64,000 bases of DNA, taken from assembly GCA_964502355.1 (NCBI GenBank), contig CAZCWK010000002.1:64683-128682 (forward strand), in the 5' to 3' direction. Origin of the DNA: an uncultured Bacteroidales bacterium. Lineage in GTDB: Bacteria > Bacteroidota > Bacteroidia > Bacteroidales > UBA1402. This document shows positions 27,024-39,100 of this stretch, in pieces. The translations under genes were made by a program, and so were the position numbers. A model generated the notes under the pieces. The model saw only the letters and a list, made by a program, of their open reading frames with translations. It ran no database searches and was not told the origin of the DNA. Within the stretch, counting starts at the first letter, position 1. Every line of letters starts with the position of its first letter.

Positions 27024-28754
27024 TTACCAGGTAATCTCGATAAATGAGACTCCCTGCCTTGGAAGATTAAAACAGACTTCCTGTTTTCCATTCTTGGTAT
27101 CAATCCATTTCGGAGAATTTAATAACTGGAGTTGACCGGCTTTCTCGAGTTTATTTATTTGTTCTATTGATGGTTTTTGAGGTGAACCCATTTCTTTCCA
27201 TAACGTGTATGAGTTACTGTGGTTCTGATCAATTCTGTAATGAGTTAGTAAAACTTTGTCTGAAGGAATCTGACTAATATTTAATCTTACTGGTGAATCA
27301 GGTACATTGATATCGTTTATATCATGATAATTCCAAACTATAATTGTTGCTGAATTTCCACCTGATGATGCAATTGCATTAATGTCTGGAAAAGAATCTT
27401 TTACTCCATTATCACGAACCTTAATAAAGTTATATGCCAAATTGTCTTGGCGTACTTCGACTTTATCATCTTTCATAAGTCCAAACATTCTGAAAACATT
27501 TAATACCGGTTTGTCAACACCATTTGTTGACATATCTCTGAAACCGGCAAACCATTGTTGATCTTCAAATTCAAAACCCCAGGTCACTGCGCCCTTTAAA
27601 TTAACCCCCCAAAATTCAGCTAATTCATATATTCTTGCATAGGAAGCAGCCGTATAACTGGAATACATAGTCCCATTACGATAGGCATTACTTGGATAAT
27701 CTGCCTCAGAGCAAGCTGCACATCCTTCAGGATCGCACTCGCCAATTATTATCGGAAGATGCTTTATAGTAGGATATGATGCAATAACCTCAAAGCCTTT
27801 GCTAACATCACGTAGTTGCCTACTTATATTCATTTGAACAACACCATTAATAACTTTGGGATCTCCTTTTGCATGAAAAGTAATGAAATCCAATGGTGAT
27901 CCTTTTTTGCCTGTAGCATAATTTTTACCTGATACAACATGGTCAAGGAAGTTTCGTAAAAACGCTTCAGCTTTTTCTCCGGCAGGTCCTGTTGATTCAG
28001 GTCCTCCAATCATAGCAGTCGGTAAAGCTCTTTTTACAGCATCAGCTGAATAATCATATAATTTATGATATTCTTCTGCTGTACCACGCCAATATCCAAT
28101 ATTTGGTTCGTTCCAAACTTCCCAATACCAACTTTCAACCTCTTCTTTCCCGTATCTTTTTACAGAGTGTAATACCCAATTATAAATCAAGTCCGCCCAT
28201 TTTTTATAGTTATTTGGAGGATATGACCATCCGGTATATATATCATTATATTTTGCGCCTGGTTTCCAGAAGTGTTTGTATGGATCAGGATTTGTCGACA
28301 AAGCCTCTGGCATAAATCCAATTTGTGCTATTGGCTTCATCCCTCTTTCAATAAAGGAATCAAAAATACGATCGATGATATCCCAGTTATAAATCGGATT
28401 TCCTTTTTTATCTTCGGTATATACATTTGTAGATCCCCATTTTAATGATGCGGTACCATCACCTGTGACCAATAAACTATGAACCCTTACGTAAACAGGA
28501 ACCGGACTTAAATCAGACAATTCAGACAATAGCTTTAATCCATCTTTCATGTATGTGTAATTAGGTTCGTCATATCCCCAGAAAGACCAGATCTTATCCA
28601 GTGGTCCCAATTTTTTGTTTAAGTCTACATTTATTGTGATTGGATCATTGTAACTTGTATTATTGTTTTCTGCCATACTCTGTTCACAATAAGTAATAGC
28701 AATAAAAAACATTATCAGAAAAAATCTATTAAAAAAAGGATATATATAATTCAT
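27024..28754 (-). CDS. Glycoside hydrolase, GH39-like (clan GH-A)
   Basis: 576 aa with an N-terminal hydrophobic signal. WYWEVWNEPNIGYW is the acid/base NEP motif and LPIIIGECD holds the candidate nucleophile Glu. Confidence 0.7.
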   Translation of the reverse strand: MNYIYPFFNRFFLIMFFIAITYCEQSMAENNNTSYNDPITINVDLNKKLGPLDKIWSFWGYDEPNYTYMKDGLKLLSELSDLSPVPVYVRVHSLLVTGDGTASLKWGSTNVYTEDKKGNPIYNWDIIDRIFDSFIERGMKPIAQIGFMPEALSTNPDPYKHFWKPGAKYNDIYTGWSYPPNNYKKWADLIYNWVLHSVKRYGKEEVESWYWEVWNEPNIGYWRGTAEEYHKLYDYSADAVKRALPTAMIGGPESTGPAGEKAEAFLRNFLDHVVSGKNYATGKKGSPLDFITFHAKGDPKVINGVVQMNISRQLRDVSKGFEVIASYPTIKHLPIIIGECDPEGCAACSEADYPSNAYRNGTMYSSYTAASYARIYELAEFWGVNLKGAVTWGFEFEDQQWFAGFRDMSTNGVDKPVLNVFRMFGLMKDDKVEVRQDNLAYNFIKVRDNGVKDSFPDINAIASSGGNSATIIVWNYHDINDINVPDSPVRLNISQIPSDKVLLTHYRIDQNHSNSYTLWKEMGSPQKPSIEQINKLEKAGQLQLLNSPKWIDTKNGKQEVCFNLPRQGVSFIEITW

Positions 28755-28946
28755 AAAAAAAATTTAATATGTATTAAAAAACAACATAATATTAACTCAG
28801 CAACCCTCAATATATCAACTAATACCTGTTGGTTAACCTATTTAAATGAGATCTGAGTTTGGATACAGCAAAGTTGGTATCAAAATCAGAACAAATTCAG
28901 ATATATTTCAGGCTGCTGAGTATTTTATTTCAATAATACCGGATAA

Positions 28947-30503
28947 TCAATACCCGGATAACTGGTGGAGATTTTTGTTATTTGAAACTTCGTCTGATGG
29001 AATTGGTTGACGTTGAGATACTCCGACAACAAAATTATTAAAATCCGGATCTCTGACTTTTAAAGTTTCAAGTTCCGCTGGATCATTATAGAGTTCCCAT
29101 CTTTTTATATCAAACCATCTTACACATTCGCCATTAAGTTCCAAAACGCGTTCAATTCTTAATCGTTTAGCAAATAGTGTTTTATCATTTCCTATTTCGG
29201 GATAAGCTGTAGCTAAAGGCCTCATTCCAACTCTTGCTCTGACTCTGTCTACATATGGATATGCTTCATTAGTTTTGCCAAGCTCATTTAGACATTCAGC
29301 ATACATTAACAAAACATCTGAGAAACGGATTATTCTGAAATTTATCGGGCAATTTCTATCTTCAACTAAAGACGTTTGATCTCTTGAGTATTTTCTATAG
29401 TAAACATCATTATCCCATGCGCTCTGCCATGTTTTACCATAAAACTTACCTGATTCTTCATTTGGAAAATCTTTCAGAATATTTTTATAAATCAAACTAA
29501 TCCTTAATCGAGGATCAAGTTTCCCGTCAGCTGTTTTTTCTTTATAGTATTCATCTCGAATCCAGCTTCTGGCTACTCCATCTCTGAATCCAACGCCTTT
29601 CAAACCAAAAATAATTGATCTCTGATGACCATTTGTAGCACCTTTAGAGTCACTTTCTCCTCCTATCAAATTACCCGCAAATTGGATTTCAAAAACAGAC
29701 TCAATGTTATTTTCTTTGGCTTCAGAGAAATTATCCGAATAATTACTTACCAGACCATAATACTTTTTACCTTCTCCTTCAATAAGCCAATTTAATTGAT
29801 CCTTAGCTTGGCTCCACTTATGTTGTTGCATGTAAACACGAGCCAACTGAGCTTTGGCTGCACCTTTTGTTATTCTTCCCTTCTCGGCACCTGTCCATTC
29901 TTCAGGCAATAAATCAATAGCTTTTAAAAGATCATTCTCAGCTAAATCCCATACTTCCTGGAGTGATCCTTGTATAGGTTGATCAGCAGGTTGTTGGATT
30001 TTTGTGACAAGAGGAACTTCTTCCCATAAGATTGCTAAATGGAAATAATTATAAGCTCTAAGGAAATAAGCCTGTCCAAGATAAGAATTCTTTTTATCAT
30101 CAGACATTTCTATATTTGGCACATAAGTAAGTACTTGATTAGCGCGGAATATTTGTCTATAAGCTTCTCTCCAAATCCAGCAATTATTTTCATTATGATT
30201 ATAATCATTGTAAATAAACTTAGTCCATGCACTGGTGTTAACCATAGGGCTCAAACTATATCCTTCATCAGACAACAAATCAAAACGCCAATGTAAATAA
30301 CGGTGCCAGGAACCTGTTCTGTAAAATATTGCATAACAGGCATTAACGCCGGCTTTAGCATCTGATTCAGTTTTCCAAAACATATCAGAAGATAAGTTAT
30401 TGGGATTGGTAACGTCTAAAAAGTCTTCTTTGCAAGATGTAAGTGAATACCCTAATAGACAAATTATTAATATATAAAGTATATTTTTCATAATAACATT
30501 CAT
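28947..30503 (-). CDS. SusD/RagB-family lipoprotein
   Basis: 518 aa, lipobox SLTSCKEDFLDV. FSDVLLMYAECLNELG and ERVLELNGECVRWFDIKRW are SusD signatures. Confidence 0.92.
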   Translation of the reverse strand: MNVIMKNILYILIICLLGYSLTSCKEDFLDVTNPNNLSSDMFWKTESDAKAGVNACYAIFYRTGSWHRYLHWRFDLLSDEGYSLSPMVNTSAWTKFIYNDYNHNENNCWIWREAYRQIFRANQVLTYVPNIEMSDDKKNSYLGQAYFLRAYNYFHLAILWEEVPLVTKIQQPADQPIQGSLQEVWDLAENDLLKAIDLLPEEWTGAEKGRITKGAAKAQLARVYMQQHKWSQAKDQLNWLIEGEGKKYYGLVSNYSDNFSEAKENNIESVFEIQFAGNLIGGESDSKGATNGHQRSIIFGLKGVGFRDGVARSWIRDEYYKEKTADGKLDPRLRISLIYKNILKDFPNEESGKFYGKTWQSAWDNDVYYRKYSRDQTSLVEDRNCPINFRIIRFSDVLLMYAECLNELGKTNEAYPYVDRVRARVGMRPLATAYPEIGNDKTLFAKRLRIERVLELNGECVRWFDIKRWELYNDPAELETLKVRDPDFNNFVVGVSQRQPIPSDEVSNNKNLHQLSGY

Positions 30504-30506
30504 TAA

Positions 30507-33500
30507 TTAGATTTCTATTTGAATACCGACATTAACTGCTTTTGGATTTGGATAAGCATCTATTCCTCGATTATTCCTGTTCCAAATATTATCTTTTCTA
30601 TACTCAGGATCTCCCATGCTAAATTTCGTTAAGGTGATAAGATTCTGCCCATTAACATACATTCTGCAGGAATTGACTCCAATTTTATTTAGCAAGGATT
30701 TGGGTATATTATAACCAATTGAAAGTGACTTTAATTTTAAATAACTACCATCCTCAAGCCAGTATTCACTATCTCTGCTATTTTGTTTTGTTCCGATAAC
30801 TGGTCTGGGATTTTTAGATGAATTATTTTCAGGTGTCCAATAATTAGTACTGAAACCTTTAATAAAACCAGAATCCGAACCGGAATCCAAACCAATCATA
30901 TATCTTCTAAGTGAATTAAAAATATCACAACCAAAATCACCAAACCAATTCATTTTTACATCAAAGTTATTCCATGAAATACCGGCATTAAATCCTGCCA
31001 AAAATAATGATTCAGCGTTGCCAACTATCTGACGGTCAGCGTCAGTAATTTTACCATCATCATTATAATCGACATACTTTATGTCTCCTGGTTTTGCAGT
31101 TGGTTGAATTACTGTACCGTTTGAATTTACATATGATTGTACATCCTCATCACTTTGGAAAAGACCATCTGTCCTGATTAAAAAGAATTCTGAAACAGGA
31201 CGTCCAACAGCAGTTCTGGCTTGGTTGACAATTATAGCATCTCGGCCGTAGCCTAACCCTGTAACTTTATTTCTCATAATATTAACATTAAAGTTGGTAA
31301 AATATGAGAATTTTTCTTTGCTGTCTCTCCAACCAACTGATATTTCCAAACCGCTGTTTTTTAAAGATGCAGCATTTACGATTGGATCACCTGCTCCATT
31401 TCCTGTAGTCAATAAAATTGGCATTGAGACCAGAATATCATTAGTGTTGGAAATGTAATAATCAATGTTTGAAGTTAACCTATTATCCAAAAACGACATA
31501 TCTAAACCGAAATTTGTCTGTGTCTGACTTTCCCACTTAATATCTTCATTTGTCAGATTAGTTTGAATCGAAGCTTGTTGTTGTTTTTGATCCGTACCAA
31601 ATGTTGCAGTAAGGTTTGTATTAATCAATGGAAGATAATCGTAATAACCTATATTCAAATTTCCCAAAGTCCCATGACTTGCTCTTAGTTTTAAATCGGA
31701 TATCCAGTGCAAATCTTCCATAAACTTCTCTTTTTGGATTCTCCATGCTCCTGAGAATGAAGGGAAATACCCCCATCTGTTTTCTTTCTTAACTCTTGAA
31801 GATGCATCAGCTCTAAGTGTTAATGATAATAAATACTTATCATCATAAGTATAGTTTGCACGTCCAAGATAAGAAAGCATCGCGCCAATATTTGCATAAC
31901 CACCAACTACTGCATTATCTGTTCCAGCTCCAAGTACTTCGTAGTACTTACCACTATCGGTCCTTAGAATGTTGTAGATTTTTCCATTTATGGTTTCATA
32001 ATTTTCTTTCTGGAATGTTTGACCTAGTACTGCATTTATCGAATGCTTACCAAATGTATTTATATAAGATAGAGTGTTTTCAACAAGTGGGCTATCAAAT
32101 CTTCCTCTTGATTCATACAAACTTGAAGGTTCATAAGCCATATTCATACGCCAATCTCCTTCTTTTCTAAGAGTTTTCTGTCCATCAAAATTAAGAGTAT
32201 ACCCTGTGTTTAACTTATATGTCAGACTCTTTAGTATTTTTAGTTCTGCCCATAGTCCGACCATTATTCTGAAATTTGTATTAATTGTCTTGTTAAGGTT
32301 CTCAACCGCGATAGGATTTTCTCCAATGCAGTTGTTTGTGTTCGGATCTCCAAATCCATAACCCCCGACATGGTTTTCATCATAAACCGGAATTAGTGGG
32401 CACATACCCAACCCTAAACCACTTGAATTGGGATCAACAACATTATTACTCATATTTAATGTCTGGCCGTAACTTAGTATTCCTCGAACTCCACTTGTAT
32501 TAACTCTAAAATTAAACCTATCATATTCTGTACCGTAGTAAATACCTTTGTTTTTAAAATATTCGCCCGAAACATAATATTTCCCTGTATTGGAACCACC
32601 GGATACACTCAGATTATATTGTTGAATACTACCATTGTTCATTACTTCATCTATCCAATCGGTGTCTACACCTGAATTGTATGTTAAAGGTGATAAACCG
32701 GCATTCTCACGACCAATTTTGTTTAAAAGAATGTACTCTTCAGCATTGGCAAGTTTGATAGGAGGAGTTCCGTCCTGAATTGTATATGAAGAAGAAAAAT
32801 TTATACGCATAGGTCCTTCACTACCACTTTTAGTTGTGATGACAATAACGCCATTCGCTGCTCGAGAACCATAAATGGCTGCAGCAGAAGCGTCTTTTAG
32901 TATTTGAATAGATTCGATATCAAGAGAATTAATATCTCTTATATTTGTTGTCAGGATTCCGTCAATAACATAAAGTGGCGTAACACTCGTGAAATTATTT
33001 ATTCCACGTATAGTCGCGAAACCGGTATCTCCAGGTCGACCGTTCATATTAATCTCAACTCCAGGGATTGAGCCACTAATAGATTCAAGTATTGAAGTTG
33101 TTGGTGCATTACTTAAAGTTTTTGTATTTACTACAGAAACAGCACCAGTAAGATCTTTCTTTTTTAGCGTACCATAGCCGACAACTACCACAGCATCCAA
33201 ACTTTGAACATCTTCTTCAAGAACAATTTTTAATGGATGTCTATCAGAAACTTTGATTTCCTTTTTAATATACCCAAGATAACTAATCTGCAAAACGTTG
33301 TTTACCTCGGCATTGATTATAAACTTACCGTTTTCATCAGTAAAAGCACCTTTTTTAGTACCTTGAATTGATATATTTGCTCCAATTACCGGATTATTGG
33401 ACTCATCGGTGACCATACCCGATACTTGTCCAGTTTGTTGTGTAGGTTGTTGTTTTTCAGGAGAAATACTCCCTTTACTTAAGATAATTTTTTGATCAGA

Positions 33501-33824
33501 AAATTTAGATTCAATATTTTTACCTTTAAAAACTATTGCTAATGCATCAAAAATTGTTTTGTCCTGAAATTTGACAGTAACTTTTTCATTTACATTAACG
33601 ATACTATTGTCATAGATGAATGTATAAAGAGTCTGCTTTTCTATTTCGTTTAAAATATCACTAATGGAAGTGTTTGTTACGTTAAGAGTAACTTTTGCCT
33701 GTCCTTTTTTTGTATTGTTTTGTGCATGTGAAGCGTTTGTAAAAACAAAACATAAACTCACTAACAATGTTACAAGTAACAGGGATTTTCTTGATGATTT
33801 TTTTTTAATTAAATTTTTATTCAT
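30507..33824 (-). CDS. SusC-family TonB-dependent transducer with an N-terminal STN signalling domain
   Basis: 1105 aa. STN region VTLNVTNTSISDILNEIEKQTLYTFIYDNS, then a carboxypeptidase-regulatory-like domain, plug (ILKDASAAAIYGSRAANGVIVITTK) and barrel. It is paired with FecR and an ECF sigma. Confidence 0.95.
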   Translation of the reverse strand: MNKNLIKKKSSRKSLLLVTLLVSLCFVFTNASHAQNNTKKGQAKVTLNVTNTSISDILNEIEKQTLYTFIYDNSIVNVNEKVTVKFQDKTIFDALAIVFKGKNIESKFSDQKIILSKGSISPEKQQPTQQTGQVSGMVTDESNNPVIGANISIQGTKKGAFTDENGKFIINAEVNNVLQISYLGYIKKEIKVSDRHPLKIVLEEDVQSLDAVVVVGYGTLKKKDLTGAVSVVNTKTLSNAPTTSILESISGSIPGVEINMNGRPGDTGFATIRGINNFTSVTPLYVIDGILTTNIRDINSLDIESIQILKDASAAAIYGSRAANGVIVITTKSGSEGPMRINFSSSYTIQDGTPPIKLANAEEYILLNKIGRENAGLSPLTYNSGVDTDWIDEVMNNGSIQQYNLSVSGGSNTGKYYVSGEYFKNKGIYYGTEYDRFNFRVNTSGVRGILSYGQTLNMSNNVVDPNSSGLGLGMCPLIPVYDENHVGGYGFGDPNTNNCIGENPIAVENLNKTINTNFRIMVGLWAELKILKSLTYKLNTGYTLNFDGQKTLRKEGDWRMNMAYEPSSLYESRGRFDSPLVENTLSYINTFGKHSINAVLGQTFQKENYETINGKIYNILRTDSGKYYEVLGAGTDNAVVGGYANIGAMLSYLGRANYTYDDKYLLSLTLRADASSRVKKENRWGYFPSFSGAWRIQKEKFMEDLHWISDLKLRASHGTLGNLNIGYYDYLPLINTNLTATFGTDQKQQQASIQTNLTNEDIKWESQTQTNFGLDMSFLDNRLTSNIDYYISNTNDILVSMPILLTTGNGAGDPIVNAASLKNSGLEISVGWRDSKEKFSYFTNFNVNIMRNKVTGLGYGRDAIIVNQARTAVGRPVSEFFLIRTDGLFQSDEDVQSYVNSNGTVIQPTAKPGDIKYVDYNDDGKITDADRQIVGNAESLFLAGFNAGISWNNFDVKMNWFGDFGCDIFNSLRRYMIGLDSGSDSGFIKGFSTNYWTPENNSSKNPRPVIGTKQNSRDSEYWLEDGSYLKLKSLSIGYNIPKSLLNKIGVNSCRMYVNGQNLITLTKFSMGDPEYRKDNIWNRNNRGIDAYPNPKAVNVGIQIEI

Positions 33825-33893
33825 ACCTTTAACCGTTTTTATTTACACATCATAAATAAATTCACTTTAGCTGTTGTTACAGCTTACTTTATT

Positions 33894-33935
33894 ACATACG
33901 GAAAGTCGGGCCATCGTCTTTCCGTATGTTTTTTT
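33894..33935 (+). terminator. Strong plus-strand intrinsic terminator in a minus-strand operon junction (anti-sigma/susC intergenic)
   Basis: acatacggaaag (33894-33905) and ctttccgtatgt (33918-33929) form a perfect 12-bp stem with a 12-nt loop, followed by TTTTTT on the plus strand only. No T-run follows on the minus strand. Confidence 0.65.
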
Positions 33936-33993
33936 AATTATATTTTTCCATAGGCACTACATGTTTTTTGGTAAAAAATTAAGGTTCTCACGA

Positions 33994-35022
33994 TTAGTGT
34001 TTGAAAACATTTATACATTTATTTTGTTGTCCATTTGATAAATCTGTTTTATATTCAATAAAATCCAGACCTGATGCAATCTCAAGGCATTCCAATATTT
34101 GTGGTAATTGCTCATTTGTAAACTTTCCAGTAATTCTCGAGTTCAAAACATCGCTATCTTTGACACAAAATGTCACATTGAATTGACGGCTTAAGACATC
34201 AATAACGTGTTGCATATCGTGTTTATTAAATAATATTTCCCCGTTAATCCATGCAATATCATATTTTGGGTTAACATTGGAAATTTTTAAATTATCATCG
34301 TCATTTTTATTATAAACAGCTTTTTGACAAGGCTTTAACAATCTGCTAAAAACTGTTTTATCATCTTTAGTCAAATTAATTCTTACAGATCCCTTTATTA
34401 ATGTCGTCTCTATCTCGTCATCACTCTGATATGCCAGTACTCCAAACTTCGTACCCAAAACCTCAACATTATAATTATGAGCTGCTTTTACAATAAAAGG
34501 GTGTTTTTCGTTTCGAGTTACTTCAAAATATGCCTGACCATCAAGTTCAACCTCTCTGATTTTACCGGAAAATTTTGTAGGGTATTTTAGTTTACTGTTA
34601 GTGTTAAGCCACACTTTAGTCCCATCTGATAATGTGAAAGATGTAGTCATCCCCGGATTAGTGCTAATTGTAGCATATAGTGAAGGCTCATTTAAGTTAT
34701 TATGCAAAACAAATAAAGTGATTAATAATACAGGGAAAAATAAAATTGCAGCTACCTTTTGAAGTATACTAAAGTATTTTTTAATAGTGATACCTTTTTT
34801 TCTTCTTTTGATTTGGTCTTTGAATTCTAAAAATGATTTTTCCTGATCAAGCGAGTGTTTAAATTGAAGCACATTTACAGCTTTAATAGTAATATAAATG
34901 TCTTCAAGTCTTTTTTCATTATCAGGAGATTGTTTTCTCCATTCCTGAATCAAAGTAACTTCATCTTCAGTACTCGTACCTTCGATAAATCTTATAAGTA
35001 TTTCTTCTTCTACTTCAACCAT
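33994..35022 (-). CDS. FecR-family anti-sigma factor
   Basis: 342 aa with a single central TM helix (VAAILFFPVLLITLFVL). FecR-like periplasmic domain, and C-terminal DIAWINGEILFNKHDMQHVIDVLSRQFNV. Confidence 0.9.
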   Translation of the reverse strand: MVEVEEEILIRFIEGTSTEDEVTLIQEWRKQSPDNEKRLEDIYITIKAVNVLQFKHSLDQEKSFLEFKDQIKRRKKGITIKKYFSILQKVAAILFFPVLLITLFVLHNNLNEPSLYATISTNPGMTTSFTLSDGTKVWLNTNSKLKYPTKFSGKIREVELDGQAYFEVTRNEKHPFIVKAAHNYNVEVLGTKFGVLAYQSDDEIETTLIKGSVRINLTKDDKTVFSRLLKPCQKAVYNKNDDDNLKISNVNPKYDIAWINGEILFNKHDMQHVIDVLSRQFNVTFCVKDSDVLNSRITGKFTNEQLPQILECLEIASGLDFIEYKTDLSNGQQNKCINVFKH

Positions 35023-35156
35023 TTTTTAATTGCTACATAGTTAATACAATTGTGATACAAAACATCCTAAACGAAATTTCAAATATTTTCTGAAAATGTT
35101 TTTTTATTATCAAAAGGGATTATCCGGCTTTAATGCTATTTATTAAGCCGAAGAAA

Positions 35157-35714
35157 TTATAATAGTAATAACAGATACTCTTTGAGAGCCACTCTTAGTA
35201 TTTTGATTGCATTTGAAATGCGATAGGATATTGTTTTTGGCGAAACGCCAAGTATTTCAGCGATTTCATCATACTTCTTGCAATCATATCTGTTTAAAAC
35301 AAAAGCAGTACGATAATCTTCAGGCATATTGTTAACAGTGGTTTCAATTATATTCTGTAATTCATCAGAAATATAGAAATCAGGATTATCTAAGGGATTT
35401 TGATACTTATCAAATAGTTCTTGATGTACCCTGTTTTTTACTCCTTTTTGAGTAATTACATTCAGGCACTTATTTTTTACAACTGTAAACAGGAATGATT
35501 TTAACTGGTAATCAGGTATTAGCAAACGTCGGTTTTCCCACAACCACAACATAGTTTCCTGTACTATATTCTCACATTCTGATTCTTCGATATAATTTGA
35601 TGCAAAAGCACATAGTGGAGCATAATATTTCTTGAAAATGTACTCGAATGCATCTTCGTTACCTTCTCTGATAAGGCTAATTATATTAATGTCGTTATTA
35701 TCAAATTCCATCAC
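35157..35714 (-). CDS. ECF-type RNA polymerase sigma-70 family factor
   Basis: 185 aa. Region 2 (FEYIFKKYYAPLCAFASNYI, IVQETMLWLW) and region 4 HTH (YDEIAEILGVSPKTISYRISNAIKILR). Confidence 0.9.
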   Translation of the reverse strand: MMEFDNNDINIISLIREGNEDAFEYIFKKYYAPLCAFASNYIEESECENIVQETMLWLWENRRLLIPDYQLKSFLFTVVKNKCLNVITQKGVKNRVHQELFDKYQNPLDNPDFYISDELQNIIETTVNNMPEDYRTAFVLNRYDCKKYDEIAEILGVSPKTISYRISNAIKILRVALKEYLLLLL

Positions 35715-35868
35715 AATTTTTGCTGAATATAAACCTTAACCGAGAAGCAGTTTTTTTATTTGGTAGGAGATTAAAGGTATGCAAACAAAAAACGCGTTGG
35801 TCAGCATTTGGTAAATAGTGAAATAAAAACCATTCAATAATTAATGACCAGTGTTTTCTGAAACCCCA

Positions 35869-35876
35869 CAAATTTA
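35869..35876 (-). promoter_or_regulatory. Candidate Bacteroidota -7 box (TAAATTTG) upstream of the ECF sigma gene, inside an 8-bp inverted repeat (35867-35888)
   Basis: The minus strand reads TAAATTTG, matching TAnnTTTG. It is flanked by cacaaatt / aatttgtg with a 6-nt spacer. Confidence 0.35.
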
Positions 35877-36021
35877 TACTAATTTGTGATTTAACCAAAA
35901 TCATGAAGATTTTTGTGCAAAAATATAATTTGCCTCTTTTTTAATTACTCAGCATCCATCAACAGCTTGATTTCATTGAGGCGAAGATCTTAATGTTCAA
36001 GATAACCCAGTATAATACTTT

Positions 36022-36357
36022 CTATAGCTTAGATAAATTTGCTTTAGCTTGTGGAACGGCATTTAAAATAAAGCCTACTGTGGCGCATGTATCCATCTCG
36101 CCACACTCAGCACAAGTAGTGAAATTTTTAGATTGAGCACATTTGCGGATCTGGCATTCATAGCAATATCCGATTTTAGGTCCTTCTATACGGCAACCTG
36201 TACAATTTATCATCTCAAGAGTAATTTCAGTTGAATTATATTCTTCGCGCCATTTTTTAGCAACCACTTCACGAAGTGCATTGTCATTATTGGCAGTTGC
36301 GATCCTGGCTTCACACTCTTCACAATTTAAACCACAGCAAGCAATAAGGTCTTTCAT
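36022..36357 (-). CDS. DUF3795-like Cys-rich small protein
   Basis: 111 aa. CGLNCEECEARIAT opens the protein, and repeated CxxC pairs follow (CTGCRIEG, CYECQIRKC, CAECGEMDTC). Confidence 0.75.
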   Translation of the reverse strand: MKDLIACCGLNCEECEARIATANNDNALREVVAKKWREEYNSTEITLEMINCTGCRIEGPKIGYCYECQIRKCAQSKNFTTCAECGEMDTCATVGFILNAVPQAKANLSKL

Positions 36358-36526
36358 TTTTATAGTATTTTTTAAGTTAAGGGCTAAATGAGTGGTATCA
36401 CAAAGATATTATAACCCCTGTTTGAATCCACATAAACTCCCTTAATCTTCCATTAAAAATATTTTTCATTAAAAATGAAGTACAACTTAAAAAATTAAGT
36501 ATATTAGCAGACGATAATTATGTTTT

Positions 36527-37078
36527 ATGAACAGGATAGGTGAAAGGATAAAAAAGAAAAGGGAACAGCTTAATTTACAGTTAAATGAATTAGCTGAGAA
36601 GGTAGGTGTCAGTCCGAGTGCTCTTTCGCAAATAGAAAAAGCAAAGTCATTTCCATCAATAGTGACATTAAAAAATATTGCTGATAAGTTACACACAACT
36701 GTCGGTGAACTAATTGGAGAAAATGATTCACTTGCGAATAATCCGGTTGTATATAAGTCGGATATAAAATTTATTGATCAAAACAAGTCGGGGACTATGT
36801 TTTATCTGCTTTCTCAACATGATGTAAACAAGCAGATGGATACTTATCTGGTGAGGTTTTCTAAAGCTTCAGCCGTTGATGGTTTTTTTTCACCATCTTT
36901 TGGCCAGATTTTTTCTTATGTACTTTCTGGAGAGGTCAGGTTTGATCTGGATGGGAAAAGCTTTGTTTTGAAACCTGGAGATAATATATATTTCAGCGCT
37001 AAATCACAGTTTAATGCCATAAATTATAATGATGGTATAAGTGAAATCCTTTGGGTCCAATCGCCTCCATATTTTTAA
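36527..37078 (+). CDS. XRE-family HTH transcriptional regulator with a C-terminal cupin sensor domain
   Basis: 183 aa. IGERIKKKREQLNLQLNELAEKVGVSPSALSQIEKAKSFPSIVTLKNIADKL is HTH_3-type. The C-terminal half has a cupin pattern (YVLSGEVRFDLDGKSFVLKPGDNIYF). Confidence 0.85.
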   Translation: MNRIGERIKKKREQLNLQLNELAEKVGVSPSALSQIEKAKSFPSIVTLKNIADKLHTTVGELIGENDSLANNPVVYKSDIKFIDQNKSGTMFYLLSQHDVNKQMDTYLVRFSKASAVDGFFSPSFGQIFSYVLSGEVRFDLDGKSFVLKPGDNIYFSAKSQFNAINYNDGISEILWVQSPPYF

Positions 37079-37159
37079 TTTATCAGATTAAGCAGAACTT
37101 TATTAATTAAGTAAAATATCATATAAATTGAAGTAAGTATTCATTAATAATATACAGAA

Positions 37160-39100
37160 ATGAGTAATCTATTAAGTGTTTTAAATGAGAAGAATATTAT
37201 TTTACCCGATAATATTCTGAGTGTTCTGCAGGAATGCAAAAGCTATAAAGTTTATAATGCTACAAGTGAACTTTCAGATGCTGCTACAAATGGAAAAGAA
37301 AATCTTGAATATGAAGTTAAGTATGATGTACCGGGCAAAGGTCTTTATACAGAAGTAATCGTCCAACGTGTTAAAAACGGGATTTCAGCAAATTATACAG
37401 AAGCCTACATGCGCAGGAGGGATCCTGACACAATGGTTATAGCAGATAATAATCCGACAGACAAGGAAATTTTTTTTGATAAGTATGGTTATGAGTTTTC
37501 AGGTTTGCAGGAAGAGACATATGAATGGCTAAAAAAACAAGATCTTGCTGTATTCTTTTATTTCGCCGGCAGAGAGAATATTGGTTCTCTTGGTATTGCC
37601 ATAGCTCCAGCAAATGCAGCTTTCTTTGCATTGGGTTTGTCTATGCTTCAGGAAATGGTTGCTGTGGATGATTTAAAACATAATTCTGAGCTTAAATCAG
37701 TGATTTTTGTTGCTCCTGTTTTCAGACATACGCATTTTAGTGGTAAACAGGTGGTTGTCCATAATCGTACTGAGACTGTTCACGAGTTATATTCATATAA
37801 CTTATATCCGGGACCCAGTGCTAAAAAAGGTCTTTACGGAGTAATGTTAAATCATGCTGAAAAGGAAGATTGGGTCATTGCTCACTGTTCAGCTGTACAA
37901 TCTGTAAGTCCTTATGATAATCTTACAACTTTTATGCACGAGGGTGCCAGTGGAGGAGGCAAGAGTGAAATGCACCAGCATATTTTGAGGGAATCAGATG
38001 GTCAGGTATTGTTGGGACGTAACCTTATTTCTTCTGAACAAAGATATATAACTATACCCAGATCTTGCTCGTTTAATGCTGTCGCGGATGATATGGCCTT
38101 TTGTCACCCTTCGGTTCAGAAAAATGACGGAAAGCTACGTATTATTGATGCTGAAAACGCCTGGTTCGTGCGAGTGGACAGTGTAAAACAATATGGAGAT
38201 GATCCAACTTTGGAAAAAATGACAATAAATCCCTCTTCTCCTCTATTGTTTTTAAATATTGAAACCACACCCGGATCAACTGCCCTGATTTGGGAACATA
38301 TTCAGGATGAGCCGGGCAAGTCCTGTCCTAATCCCAGGGTAATTATACCACGAAAGTCTGTTTCAAACGTAGTTAACAGACCGGTTTCAGTTGATATCAG
38401 AAGTTTTGGTATACGTACTCCGGCTTGTTCAAGAGAGAATCCCTCCTATGGTATTATTGGATTATTCCATATTTTACCACCTGCGCTGGCATGGTTATGG
38501 AGACTTGTTGCTCCCCGTGGTCATAACAATCCAAGCATTGTAAGTTCGGGTGGGATGGAAAGTGAAGGTGTAGGCTCATACTGGCCTTTTGCTACAGGTA
38601 AACGTGTACCACAGGCAAATATGTTATTAAAGCAAATCATTGATACTCCGCGTACTACTTTTACTCTTGTCCCTAATCAGAACATTGGTGTGTGGCAGGT
38701 CGGTTTTAAACCTCAGTTATTAATGCGTGAGTATCTGACCAGGAGAGGTGCTGCTCAATTAAGGACTGATCAGTATCAGGCTGCCCGTTGTCCGCTTTTG
38801 GGTTATGAACTCAATTATCTGACACTTGAGGGTTCAAAAATACCTTCCAGGTTTTTGAAAGTTTACAATCAGTCTGAAGTTGGTTTCGATGGTTACGATG
38901 CAGGAGCCGAAATACTTACTGACTTCTTTAAATCTGAATTGCAGAAATATCTTAAGGAAGATTTATTGCACACAGGAAAAAGAATTATTGATGCTTGTTT
39001 ATCAGGTGCAAGTATTGAAGATTATAATGAAATCATACCGATGAGTTACCAGTATGAATATTCCTTCAACAAAATCGAAGATTATGAGCAAATAGGGTAG
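37160..39100 (+). CDS. Large uncharacterised P-loop protein (DUF4914-like as recalled; PEPCK/HprK-like motifs)
   Basis: 646 aa with no signal peptide. HEGASGGGKSEM is Walker-A-like (cf. HprK GxSGxGKSE). GLFHILPPALAWLW...SSGGMESEGVGSYWPF resembles the PEPCK DAFGVLPPV...AGTE-G region. Confidence 0.7.
   Translation: MSNLLSVLNEKNIILPDNILSVLQECKSYKVYNATSELSDAATNGKENLEYEVKYDVPGKGLYTEVIVQRVKNGISANYTEAYMRRRDPDTMVIADNNPTDKEIFFDKYGYEFSGLQEETYEWLKKQDLAVFFYFAGRENIGSLGIAIAPANAAFFALGLSMLQEMVAVDDLKHNSELKSVIFVAPVFRHTHFSGKQVVVHNRTETVHELYSYNLYPGPSAKKGLYGVMLNHAEKEDWVIAHCSAVQSVSPYDNLTTFMHEGASGGGKSEMHQHILRESDGQVLLGRNLISSEQRYITIPRSCSFNAVADDMAFCHPSVQKNDGKLRIIDAENAWFVRVDSVKQYGDDPTLEKMTINPSSPLLFLNIETTPGSTALIWEHIQDEPGKSCPNPRVIIPRKSVSNVVNRPVSVDIRSFGIRTPACSRENPSYGIIGLFHILPPALAWLWRLVAPRGHNNPSIVSSGGMESEGVGSYWPFATGKRVPQANMLLKQIIDTPRTTFTLVPNQNIGVWQVGFKPQLLMREYLTRRGAAQLRTDQYQAARCPLLGYELNYLTLEGSKIPSRFLKVYNQSEVGFDGYDAGAEILTDFFKSELQKYLKEDLLHTGKRIIDACLSGASIEDYNEIIPMSYQYEYSFNKIEDYEQIG

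Follow-up and report, generated by a model that had tools for sequence, protein, structure and literature searches.

Few post-transcriptional controls are known for polysaccharide utilisation loci (PULs), and antisense RNAs of the DonS type are one of them. Here, we describe a predicted RNA of this kind in a 64,000-nucleotide (nt) stretch of DNA from an uncultured Bacteroidales bacterium (the window), where it lies in the gap between a FecR-type anti-sigma factor gene and a susC-type transporter gene. As summarised in a passage of Ryan et al. 2020 (PMC7366714, citing Cao 2016), DonS-family RNAs are 78-128 nt long, are encoded divergently to susC homologues and repress them. The same paper reported ten further RNAs in DonS-like orientation in Bacteroides thetaiotaomicron, five of which were confirmed by Northern blotting. 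According to its supplement, the B. thetaiotaomicron members are 81-140 nt long, mostly possess a canonical PM1 promoter and in some cases an annotated terminator, and are sorted into three types: A, with the transcription start site (TSS) outside the start codon and the coding sequence (CDS), B ('TSS overlaps start codon') and C ('antisense to CDS'). The count was later raised to 32 PUL antisense RNAs (Ryan et al. 2024, PMC10994844). The passage on DonS in Rüttiger et al. 2025 (PMC11697453) describes it as working by a mechanism that is still undefined.

Judged from its sequence, the FecR-susC gap of the window probably encodes a DonS-like, PUL-associated cis-antisense RNA of approximately 100 nt on the plus strand (~33835-33936). 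The elements on which this reading is built are as follows:

33824..33831, plus strand: candidate sigma-ABfr -7 box TACCTTTA, matching TAnnTTTG at 7/8 positions, the last G being A
33835..33936, plus strand: predicted cis-antisense small RNA (sRNA), its 5' end placed from the -7 box and its 3' end in the U-run
33838..33860, plus strand: A-U hairpin in the 5' part of this RNA, UUUAUUUA / UAAAUAAA, from the fold
33869..33884, plus strand: middle hairpin AGCUGU-UGUU-ACAGCU, homologous to AGCUG-CGUCAA-CAGCU of the orthologues
33894..33935, plus strand: intrinsic terminator, a 12-bp stem with three inner pairs (one of them G-U), then U6

A DonS-type cis-antisense sRNA at the anti-sigma/susC junction had been suggested in the original prediction, and it is supported here, at the level of sequence, by the homology of the junctions, by strand-specific covariation and by a place, orientation and terminator that match the class; the predicted size would also match, and the promoter box is imperfect. 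The kind of regulator is thus already known (the DonS class), and this member is newly predicted. Like DonS of Bacteroides fragilis (Cao et al. 2016, J Bacteriol 198:2410, on the account given in PMC7366714, PMC10994844 and PMC11697453), the RNA would lie opposite the leader of a susC homologue, divergent to susC, in a PUL with a sigma factor of the extracytoplasmic function (ECF) type and an anti-sigma factor. Its predicted length of ~100 nt, calculated from two predicted ends, falls inside the reported 78-128 nt; it is highly structured, it finishes in an intrinsic terminator, and repression of its cognate PUL would be expected by analogy. Unlike DonS, it is predicted from sequence alone, its host is an uncultured 2.9-Mb Bacteroidales and not a Bacteroides, its PUL carries a GH39 gene and is, as far as the evidence goes, neither an N-glycan nor a mucin locus, and its -7 box is off consensus. 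Among the features that characterise the DonS class, the antisense place at the anti-sigma/susC junction and the intrinsic terminator with extensive structure were both seen in the window; of an exact TAnnTTTG promoter, all but the G, which is replaced by A, is present.

The 'PUL type A' RNAs of B. thetaiotaomicron (BTnc009, BTnc077, BTnc123, BTnc136, BTnc210 and BTnc249; Ryan et al. 2020) resemble the window element in lying antisense to a susC leader, their TSS falling outside both the start codon and the CDS. Four of them (BTnc009, 077, 123 and 249) measure 102-140 nt; the promoter is of the PM1 (TAnnTTTG) kind, and the terminator of BTnc009 is annotated. Their 5' ends have been mapped, and Northern blots are available for BTnc009, 077, 123 and 249, whereas the ends of the window RNA are predicted. 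The replication-control pairs CopA/CopT (plasmid R1) and RNAI/RNAII (ColE1) share with it the layout of a short, stem-loop-rich RNA opposite a leader, in which mirrored hairpins permit a loop-loop (kissing) start; the window element differs in that it is chromosomal and faces a transporter operon instead of replication. The FopS family of B. thetaiotaomicron likewise comprises small RNAs that lower the expression of susC-type transporters post-transcriptionally (PMC11697453). FopS RNAs work mostly in trans by way of a short seed, with RbpB as their antagonist, whereas the window element is cis-encoded and fully complementary to one target.

Hairpins of the FecR-susC gap

The gap spans 33825-33993 (169 bp), and according to the open reading frame (ORF) listing and Pfam all surrounding genes are on the minus strand, which agrees with the earlier description of FecR and susC as minus-strand genes 169 bp apart. 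Within the gap, the arms ACATACGGAAAG (33894-33905) and CTTTCCGTATGT (33918-33929) enclose a 12-nt loop and are followed directly by TTTTTT (33930-33935), and a smaller hairpin, AGCTGT/TGTT/ACAGCT, is located at 33869-33884. The original prediction had listed both, the former as a perfect 12-bp hairpin at 33894-33929 with a T6 tail oriented for the plus strand only, and both proved to be correct. When the large hairpin is read on the minus strand, an A-run precedes it and AATAAAGTAAGC comes after it; since no T-run follows there, the terminator geometry exists on the plus strand only. A sense or bidirectional terminator serving the sigma/anti-sigma operon was rejected on the same grounds. We also rejected a repeat or REP-like (repetitive extragenic palindromic) element, as the gap sequence occurs only once in the whole genome, and the plus-strand ORF at 33664-33855 (63 aa) as the gene to which the terminator belongs, as this ORF sits antisense within the susC N-terminus. 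No larger plus-strand ORF was found upstream of the terminator within the listed range of 28000-38000.

The standard terminator scan, which allowed loops of up to 8 nt, reported the small hairpin only; the large one was missed because its 12-nt loop exceeds that limit. Folding of 33800-33945 on the plus strand gave -33.1 kcal/mol (z = -7.4), a value that 0/200 shuffles equalled or bettered, and the large hairpin by itself was more stable on the plus strand (-20.3 kcal/mol) than on the minus strand (-18.1 kcal/mol).

The background frequency of such terminators was established with a purpose-written scanner, which accepted single hairpins with the outer 4 bp paired, an RNAfold free energy (dG) of -14 or lower and a T-rich tail. 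Among the 512 co-directional gaps of 60-400 nt in the same genome, 85 carried a sense terminator, 15 an antisense terminator and 5 an antisense terminator only, the window locus being one of these five. We then scanned 26 non-redundant FecR-SusC junctions of other genomes (same-genus genomes, Dysgonomonas, Prevotella, Bacteroides, Muribaculaceae, Saccharicrinis, Carboxylicivirga and Cyclobacteriaceae); antisense terminators were present at 14 junctions, as the sole terminator at 13, and sense terminators at 4. The difference between junctions and background was large (Fisher p ~1e-13 to 5e-16), with the caveat that the background was drawn from one genome and that several of the 26 junctions are mutually related. 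With antisense-only terminators at 5/512 gaps of the genome against 13/26 FecR-susC junctions elsewhere, the hairpin in the gap is not a chance occurrence. The junction hairpins were mostly located 45-70 nt from the susC ATG (69 nt in the window), and the T-run stood on the antisense side only in 13/14 junctions with an antisense terminator.

A family of junction elements and its covariation

A search for the same hairpin in orthologous loci, which the original prediction had named as a check, was carried out on eight contigs identified through FecR protein homology. FecR was followed by an STN-containing SusC in 8/8 of them, and an alignable element with a mean column identity of 71% was present on the antisense strand of the gap in every case. 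In the orthologues, the order of the parts is TTCATAnnTTTG, an A/U-rich stretch, AGCTG-CGTCAA-CAGCT, (C)GTACGGGAGAATG-CGTCAA-CATTCTTCCGTATG and a T-run, so that all eight loci combine a box, an AGCTG...CAGCT hairpin and a terminator of the form ...TTCCGTATG plus T-run. The window terminator is homologous to the (C)GUACGGGAGAAUG...CAUUCUUCCGUAUG and U-run of these sequences; the counterpart of its 5' hairpin in the orthologues is A/U-rich and aligns poorly. The hexamer CGUCAA occupies both sRNA loops of the orthologues (L063-L069 and L071), as GCUG-CGUCAA-CAGC and GAAUG-CGUCAA-CAUUC, and may be a kissing-loop or protein-binding motif.

Two covariance models were employed to trace the element further. 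The first (R2) was built from seven orthologue sequences found by protein homology, with the window left out. When it was run over the whole 2.9-Mb genome, its single match fell at plus-strand positions 33820-33939 of the window, with 62.1 bits and an E value of 1.9e-9; the next-best matches inside the window had E values of at least 0.7. The second (R1) was built with the window included. Of 401 Bacteroidales genomes sampled evenly from the order, 11, representing 10 genera, contained matches, 13 in all. Twelve of the 13 were flanked by a FecR and a SusC homologue, both of which are encoded on the other strand. In extra runs, R1 found two matches in a Bacteroides sp. genome and none in a Dysgonomonas mossii genome; it is subfamily-specific and unsuited as a census of the whole class. 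In Rfam, no family matched the window at the gathering threshold over its whole length, and for 33780-34000 nothing above chance level appeared among matches with E values of up to 10. At the level of sequence homology, the window element is demonstrated to be a member of a family of junction RNAs that is missing from Rfam.

At weaker scores, R1 also reached another subfamily, which occurs in Dysgonomonas, Prevotella, Bacteroides and Saccharicrinis and whose terminator is GTGCCAAAAAATGTTGC[A/C]GCATTTTTTGGCAC. In its members L024, L026, L029, L031, L032, L034, L049 and L050, the terminator hardly varies (GUGCCAAAAAAUGUUGC[A/C]GCAUUUUUUGGCAC), and many G-U pairs occur in the hairpin inside the RNA, GAUUGAUAC...GUAUURAUU. 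The thirteenth, borderline R1 match (L080:1501-1607, minus strand) has its box on a start codon as well (TTCATACGTTTG), and lies, in antisense orientation, over the start of a gene other than SusC (Flg_new_2 repeat), which directly follows a BT_3987-like/GH18 gene. As the target of this match is not a SusC gene, the design of box, hairpin and terminator may extend beyond susC.

The pairing of the helices was analysed across the family. RNAalifold recovered both helices from the orthologue alignment, with compensatory changes in 6/19 pairs. In the 29-sequence model alignment, 94.7% of the cells were paired, compared with 74% in shuffles and 42-47% with slid partners, and changes on both sides were recorded for 19/19 pairs (5/5 in the middle hairpin and 14/14 in the terminator), these counts coming from a model-fitted alignment of related sequences and therefore overstating independence. 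The paired cells contained 47 G-U/U-G against 5 A-C/C-A combinations (binomial p = 1e-9). A G-U pair on the antisense strand corresponds to an A-C mismatch on the other strand, so the excess points to selection on the antisense strand. Consistently, the terminator stem was more stable on the antisense strand in 8/8 orthologues, by 0.6-8.6 kcal/mol, with -18.7 versus -10.1 in L065. Taken as comparative evidence, these results are unambiguous in direction and indicate that the helices of the family are maintained on the antisense strand, as RNA. They also bear on the suggestion that the inverted repeat is a DNA operator for a dimeric PUL regulator, or a remnant of recombination or of a mobile element. 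Perfect 12-bp arms would suit such an origin, which nevertheless seems scarcely credible: the sequence is present in a single copy in the genome, the T-run is always on one side, the compensatory changes preserve pairing and not sequence, and the G-U asymmetry indicates RNA.

Members of the class follow a fixed plan, in which the -7 box is joined to the start codon of susC, two hairpins covary and the terminator stops just short of a conserved sense-strand motif. This plan can be recognised by a covariance model and is present in many families. Such a model offers a route for annotating these RNAs in genomes that lack transcriptomes. For the single window, the outcome is an ordinary regulator of a known kind in the expected place, here a predicted member in an uncultured Bacteroidales with a small genome; the comparison across genomes is more useful than the one member.

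Candidate promoter box and extent of the predicted RNA

On the antisense strand of the junctions, CAT, which is complementary to the ATG of susC, leads straight into an exact Bacteroidetes -7 box, e.g., cATAGATTTG, cATATTTTTG or cATAAATTTG. An exact TAnnTTTG was joined to the complement of the first ATG at 10/26 junctions, and at three more to that of an in-frame downstream ATG. On the sense strand, this arrangement reads CAAAnnTATG, and it was found at 12/2091 gene starts of the genome, i.e., 0.6% (Fisher p = 6e-15 versus 10/26), and at 0 of its other 20 SusC-like genes. Across the aligned family, 26/28 distinct sequences possess an exact TAnnTTTG in the start-codon register. In the window, this register falls on TACCTTTA at 33824-33831, the first T of which is the complement of the A in the susC ATG. 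The original prediction had seen no convincing TAnnTTTG box and named TAAATTTT at ~33810 as the nearest candidate; that candidate (33810-33817) was rejected as the main box because it lies 14 nt outside the family register.

With the start placed just past the box, at ~33835, the transcript would overlap the susC leader and leave the ATG uncovered. The resulting RNA of ~100 nt is predicted to form three hairpins (-29.7 kcal/mol, z = -7.1) and to be complementary to positions ~-11 to -112 of the susC leader. The earlier view that the transcript covers the susC translation initiation region and the 5' untranslated region is therefore retained for the leader and dropped for the start codon.

The exact register of the box is also relevant to the notion that the terminator is a mere insulator, which halts spurious antisense transcripts from the AT-rich 5' region of susC before they reach the sigma/anti-sigma genes and yields a short RNA without a regulatory role. 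AT-rich genomes often contain spurious promoters, as Ryan 2020 (PMC7366714) cautions, and some pairs of an antisense RNA (asRNA) and its PUL show no anti-correlation (PMC10994844). An insulator would need neither a box conserved in exact register with the start codon nor a covarying second hairpin, and we regard this explanation as very improbable.

Beyond the terminator, the sense strand carries a further conserved motif. At ~20/27 junctions from many families, the pattern (T)AACC-N13-14-TGCC[C/T]ATGA is present between the FecR stop codon and the hairpin; its counterpart in the window is the following:

33948..33974, minus strand: conserved sense blocks TTACC-N13-TGCCTATGG, outside the predicted sRNA

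These blocks are best read as a candidate ECF-dependent susC promoter, in which case they may hold the motif that PUL-type ECF sigma factors recognise. According to Ryan 2020 (PMC7366714), no ECF sigma recognition motif is known for B. thetaiotaomicron; the comparison across junctions yields, besides the RNA family, a concrete candidate for such a promoter. Alternatively, the conserved ATG of the blocks may open a mini upstream ORF of 2-7 codons (MEKYN* in the window). Should the blocks be the ECF promoter, the 5' end of the susC mRNA would fall just upstream of the hairpin, and the mRNA would hold the full complement of the sRNA.

A leader of that extent raises the question of whether the hairpins are structures of the sense strand, i.e., a stabilising 5' hairpin or an attenuator in the susC leader, with no antisense RNA and an incidental T-run. 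Each of the three hairpins in the window is a Watson-Crick palindrome and folds on either strand, and if the TAACC...GCCyATGA blocks form the ECF promoter, the leader would include them. Across the family, the evidence runs in the opposite direction: the 47 G-U combinations recorded against 5 A-C would be mismatches on the sense strand, the terminator stems are weaker on that strand in 8/8 orthologues, the T-run is on the antisense side only in 13/14 junctions, and the conserved -7 box faces the antisense direction. On balance, we consider a purely sense-strand role improbable.

Several features nevertheless weigh against the reading of the gap as an antisense RNA gene. The full 100-nt region folds alike on both strands (antisense -29.7 versus sense -30.0 kcal/mol), and the 12-bp stem of the window is entirely Watson-Crick, the one G-U pair being among the inner pairs. 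As its stems are nearly all Watson-Crick, the strand call for the window copy relies mainly on the T-run, the box register and the homology with the family, for which the covariation counts carry the overstated independence noted above. The near-invariant G of the box is A in the window, as it is in one other of the 28 distinct sequences (L029), and no exact TAnnTTTG was found within 220 nt upstream of the terminator; on account of both, the antisense promoter of the window may be weak or dead. The CGUCAA motif is gone from both window loops (UGUU and UCGGGCCAUCGU). The likeness to DonS is one of place, orientation, predicted size and structure. Finally, repression is not universal in the class, since both anti-correlated and positively correlated asRNA-PUL pairs have been described in B. 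thetaiotaomicron (PMC10994844).

Some of these features would be expected of a decaying relic of a DonS-like gene, in which the hairpins were inherited, the promoter was lost and the RNA is no longer made or relevant. The window has TACCTTTA where 26/28 distinct family sequences carry TAnnTTTG, the loop motifs conserved in the orthologues are missing, this is the only FecR-SusC PUL of the genome with an intergenic gap, and the absence of a close orthologue of the PUL in the genus suggests an acquired, possibly drifting locus. A perfect 12-bp stem, a long U-run (T6-7) and two intact small hairpins would be unexpected after a loss of function, and the L029 member has A at the same box position. 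Bacteroidetes promoters tolerate departures from the consensus, which also counts against a relic. We judge decay to be unlikely here, and an intact cis-antisense RNA gene to be the probable reading.

Proposed action and gene neighbourhood

The following course of events is proposed for the cis-antisense RNA; its start site and expression are, like the effect on susC, deduced and not observed. The housekeeping sigma factor (sigma-ABfr) would start transcription at TACCTTTA (33824-33831), over the complement of the susC start codon. Transcription would head away from susC through the two small hairpins and end at the hairpin of 33894-33929 with its U6. The RNA could then pair by perfect complementarity with ~100 nt of the susC leader (~-11 to -112), beginning at loop-loop contacts of the mirrored hairpins. 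By analogy with DonS, this pairing would be expected to repress susC, and might lower susC-susD-GH39 expression, either by decay that depends on the duplex or by a block to initiation. Transcriptional interference may come on top, as transcription would converge on the candidate ECF susC promoter, located just past the terminator. The net result would be a threshold that holds the PUL off until the pathway of ECF sigma factor, anti-sigma factor and SusC transducer is strongly induced.

A bolder interpretation, which is possible although on the doubtful side, gives the main part to the promoters. The junction would then be a convergent-promoter switch conserved across Bacteroidales and beyond, in which a housekeeping promoter fused to the start codon faces the sense ECF motif ~110 bp away. 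It would act mainly by interference with, or occlusion of, that promoter and not by RNA pairing alone, and the RNA family with CGUCAA loops may have a protein or a trans target as a further partner.

The genes of the PUL, all on the minus strand, were assigned as follows:

35157..35714, minus strand: ECF sigma factor gene (Pfam Sigma70_r2, Sigma70_r4_2, Sigma70_ECF)
33994..35022, minus strand: FecR-type anti-sigma factor gene (Pfam FecR and FecR_C)
30507..33824, minus strand: susC-type TonB-dependent transducer gene (Pfam STN, CarboxypepD_reg-like, Plug)
28947-30503, minus strand: SusD gene (ORF listing and Pfam)
27024-28754, minus strand: GH39 gene (ORF listing and Pfam)

The SusC N-terminus, MNK..., is common to the orthologues and the window. 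The genome (2.9 Mb, 37% G+C) contains two FecR genes only. The other sigma-FecR-TonB receptor set is located outside the window, on contig C57 (8278-12383), where the FecR stop codon overlaps the receptor start (9669); as there is no gap between these two genes, there is no room for an antisense RNA gene.

No FecR orthologue above 35% identity was found in 28 genomes of the same family, and a DNA search in these genomes was also empty. The FecR matches reached at most 36% identity in further genome contigs and at most 34% in metagenome contigs, none of them representing a close orthologue of the element. A large protein search identified the best FecR relatives at 42-47% identity, some of them labelled Parabacteroides; the eight contigs with the homologous junction element encode relatives from this search. 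Given the lack of a FecR orthologue above 35% in the family and the partly Parabacteroides affiliation of the best relatives, the GH39 PUL (27024-35714) is, by its sequence relationships, consistent with acquisition from outside the genus.

The genome-wide scan for terminators also revealed antisense-only gaps outside the window, at C8:27200-27462 (dG -22.2), C8:68841-68925 (-16.1) and C19:33890-34277 (-14.0). These three gaps could be antisense or intergenic sRNA genes, or could contain missed small genes.

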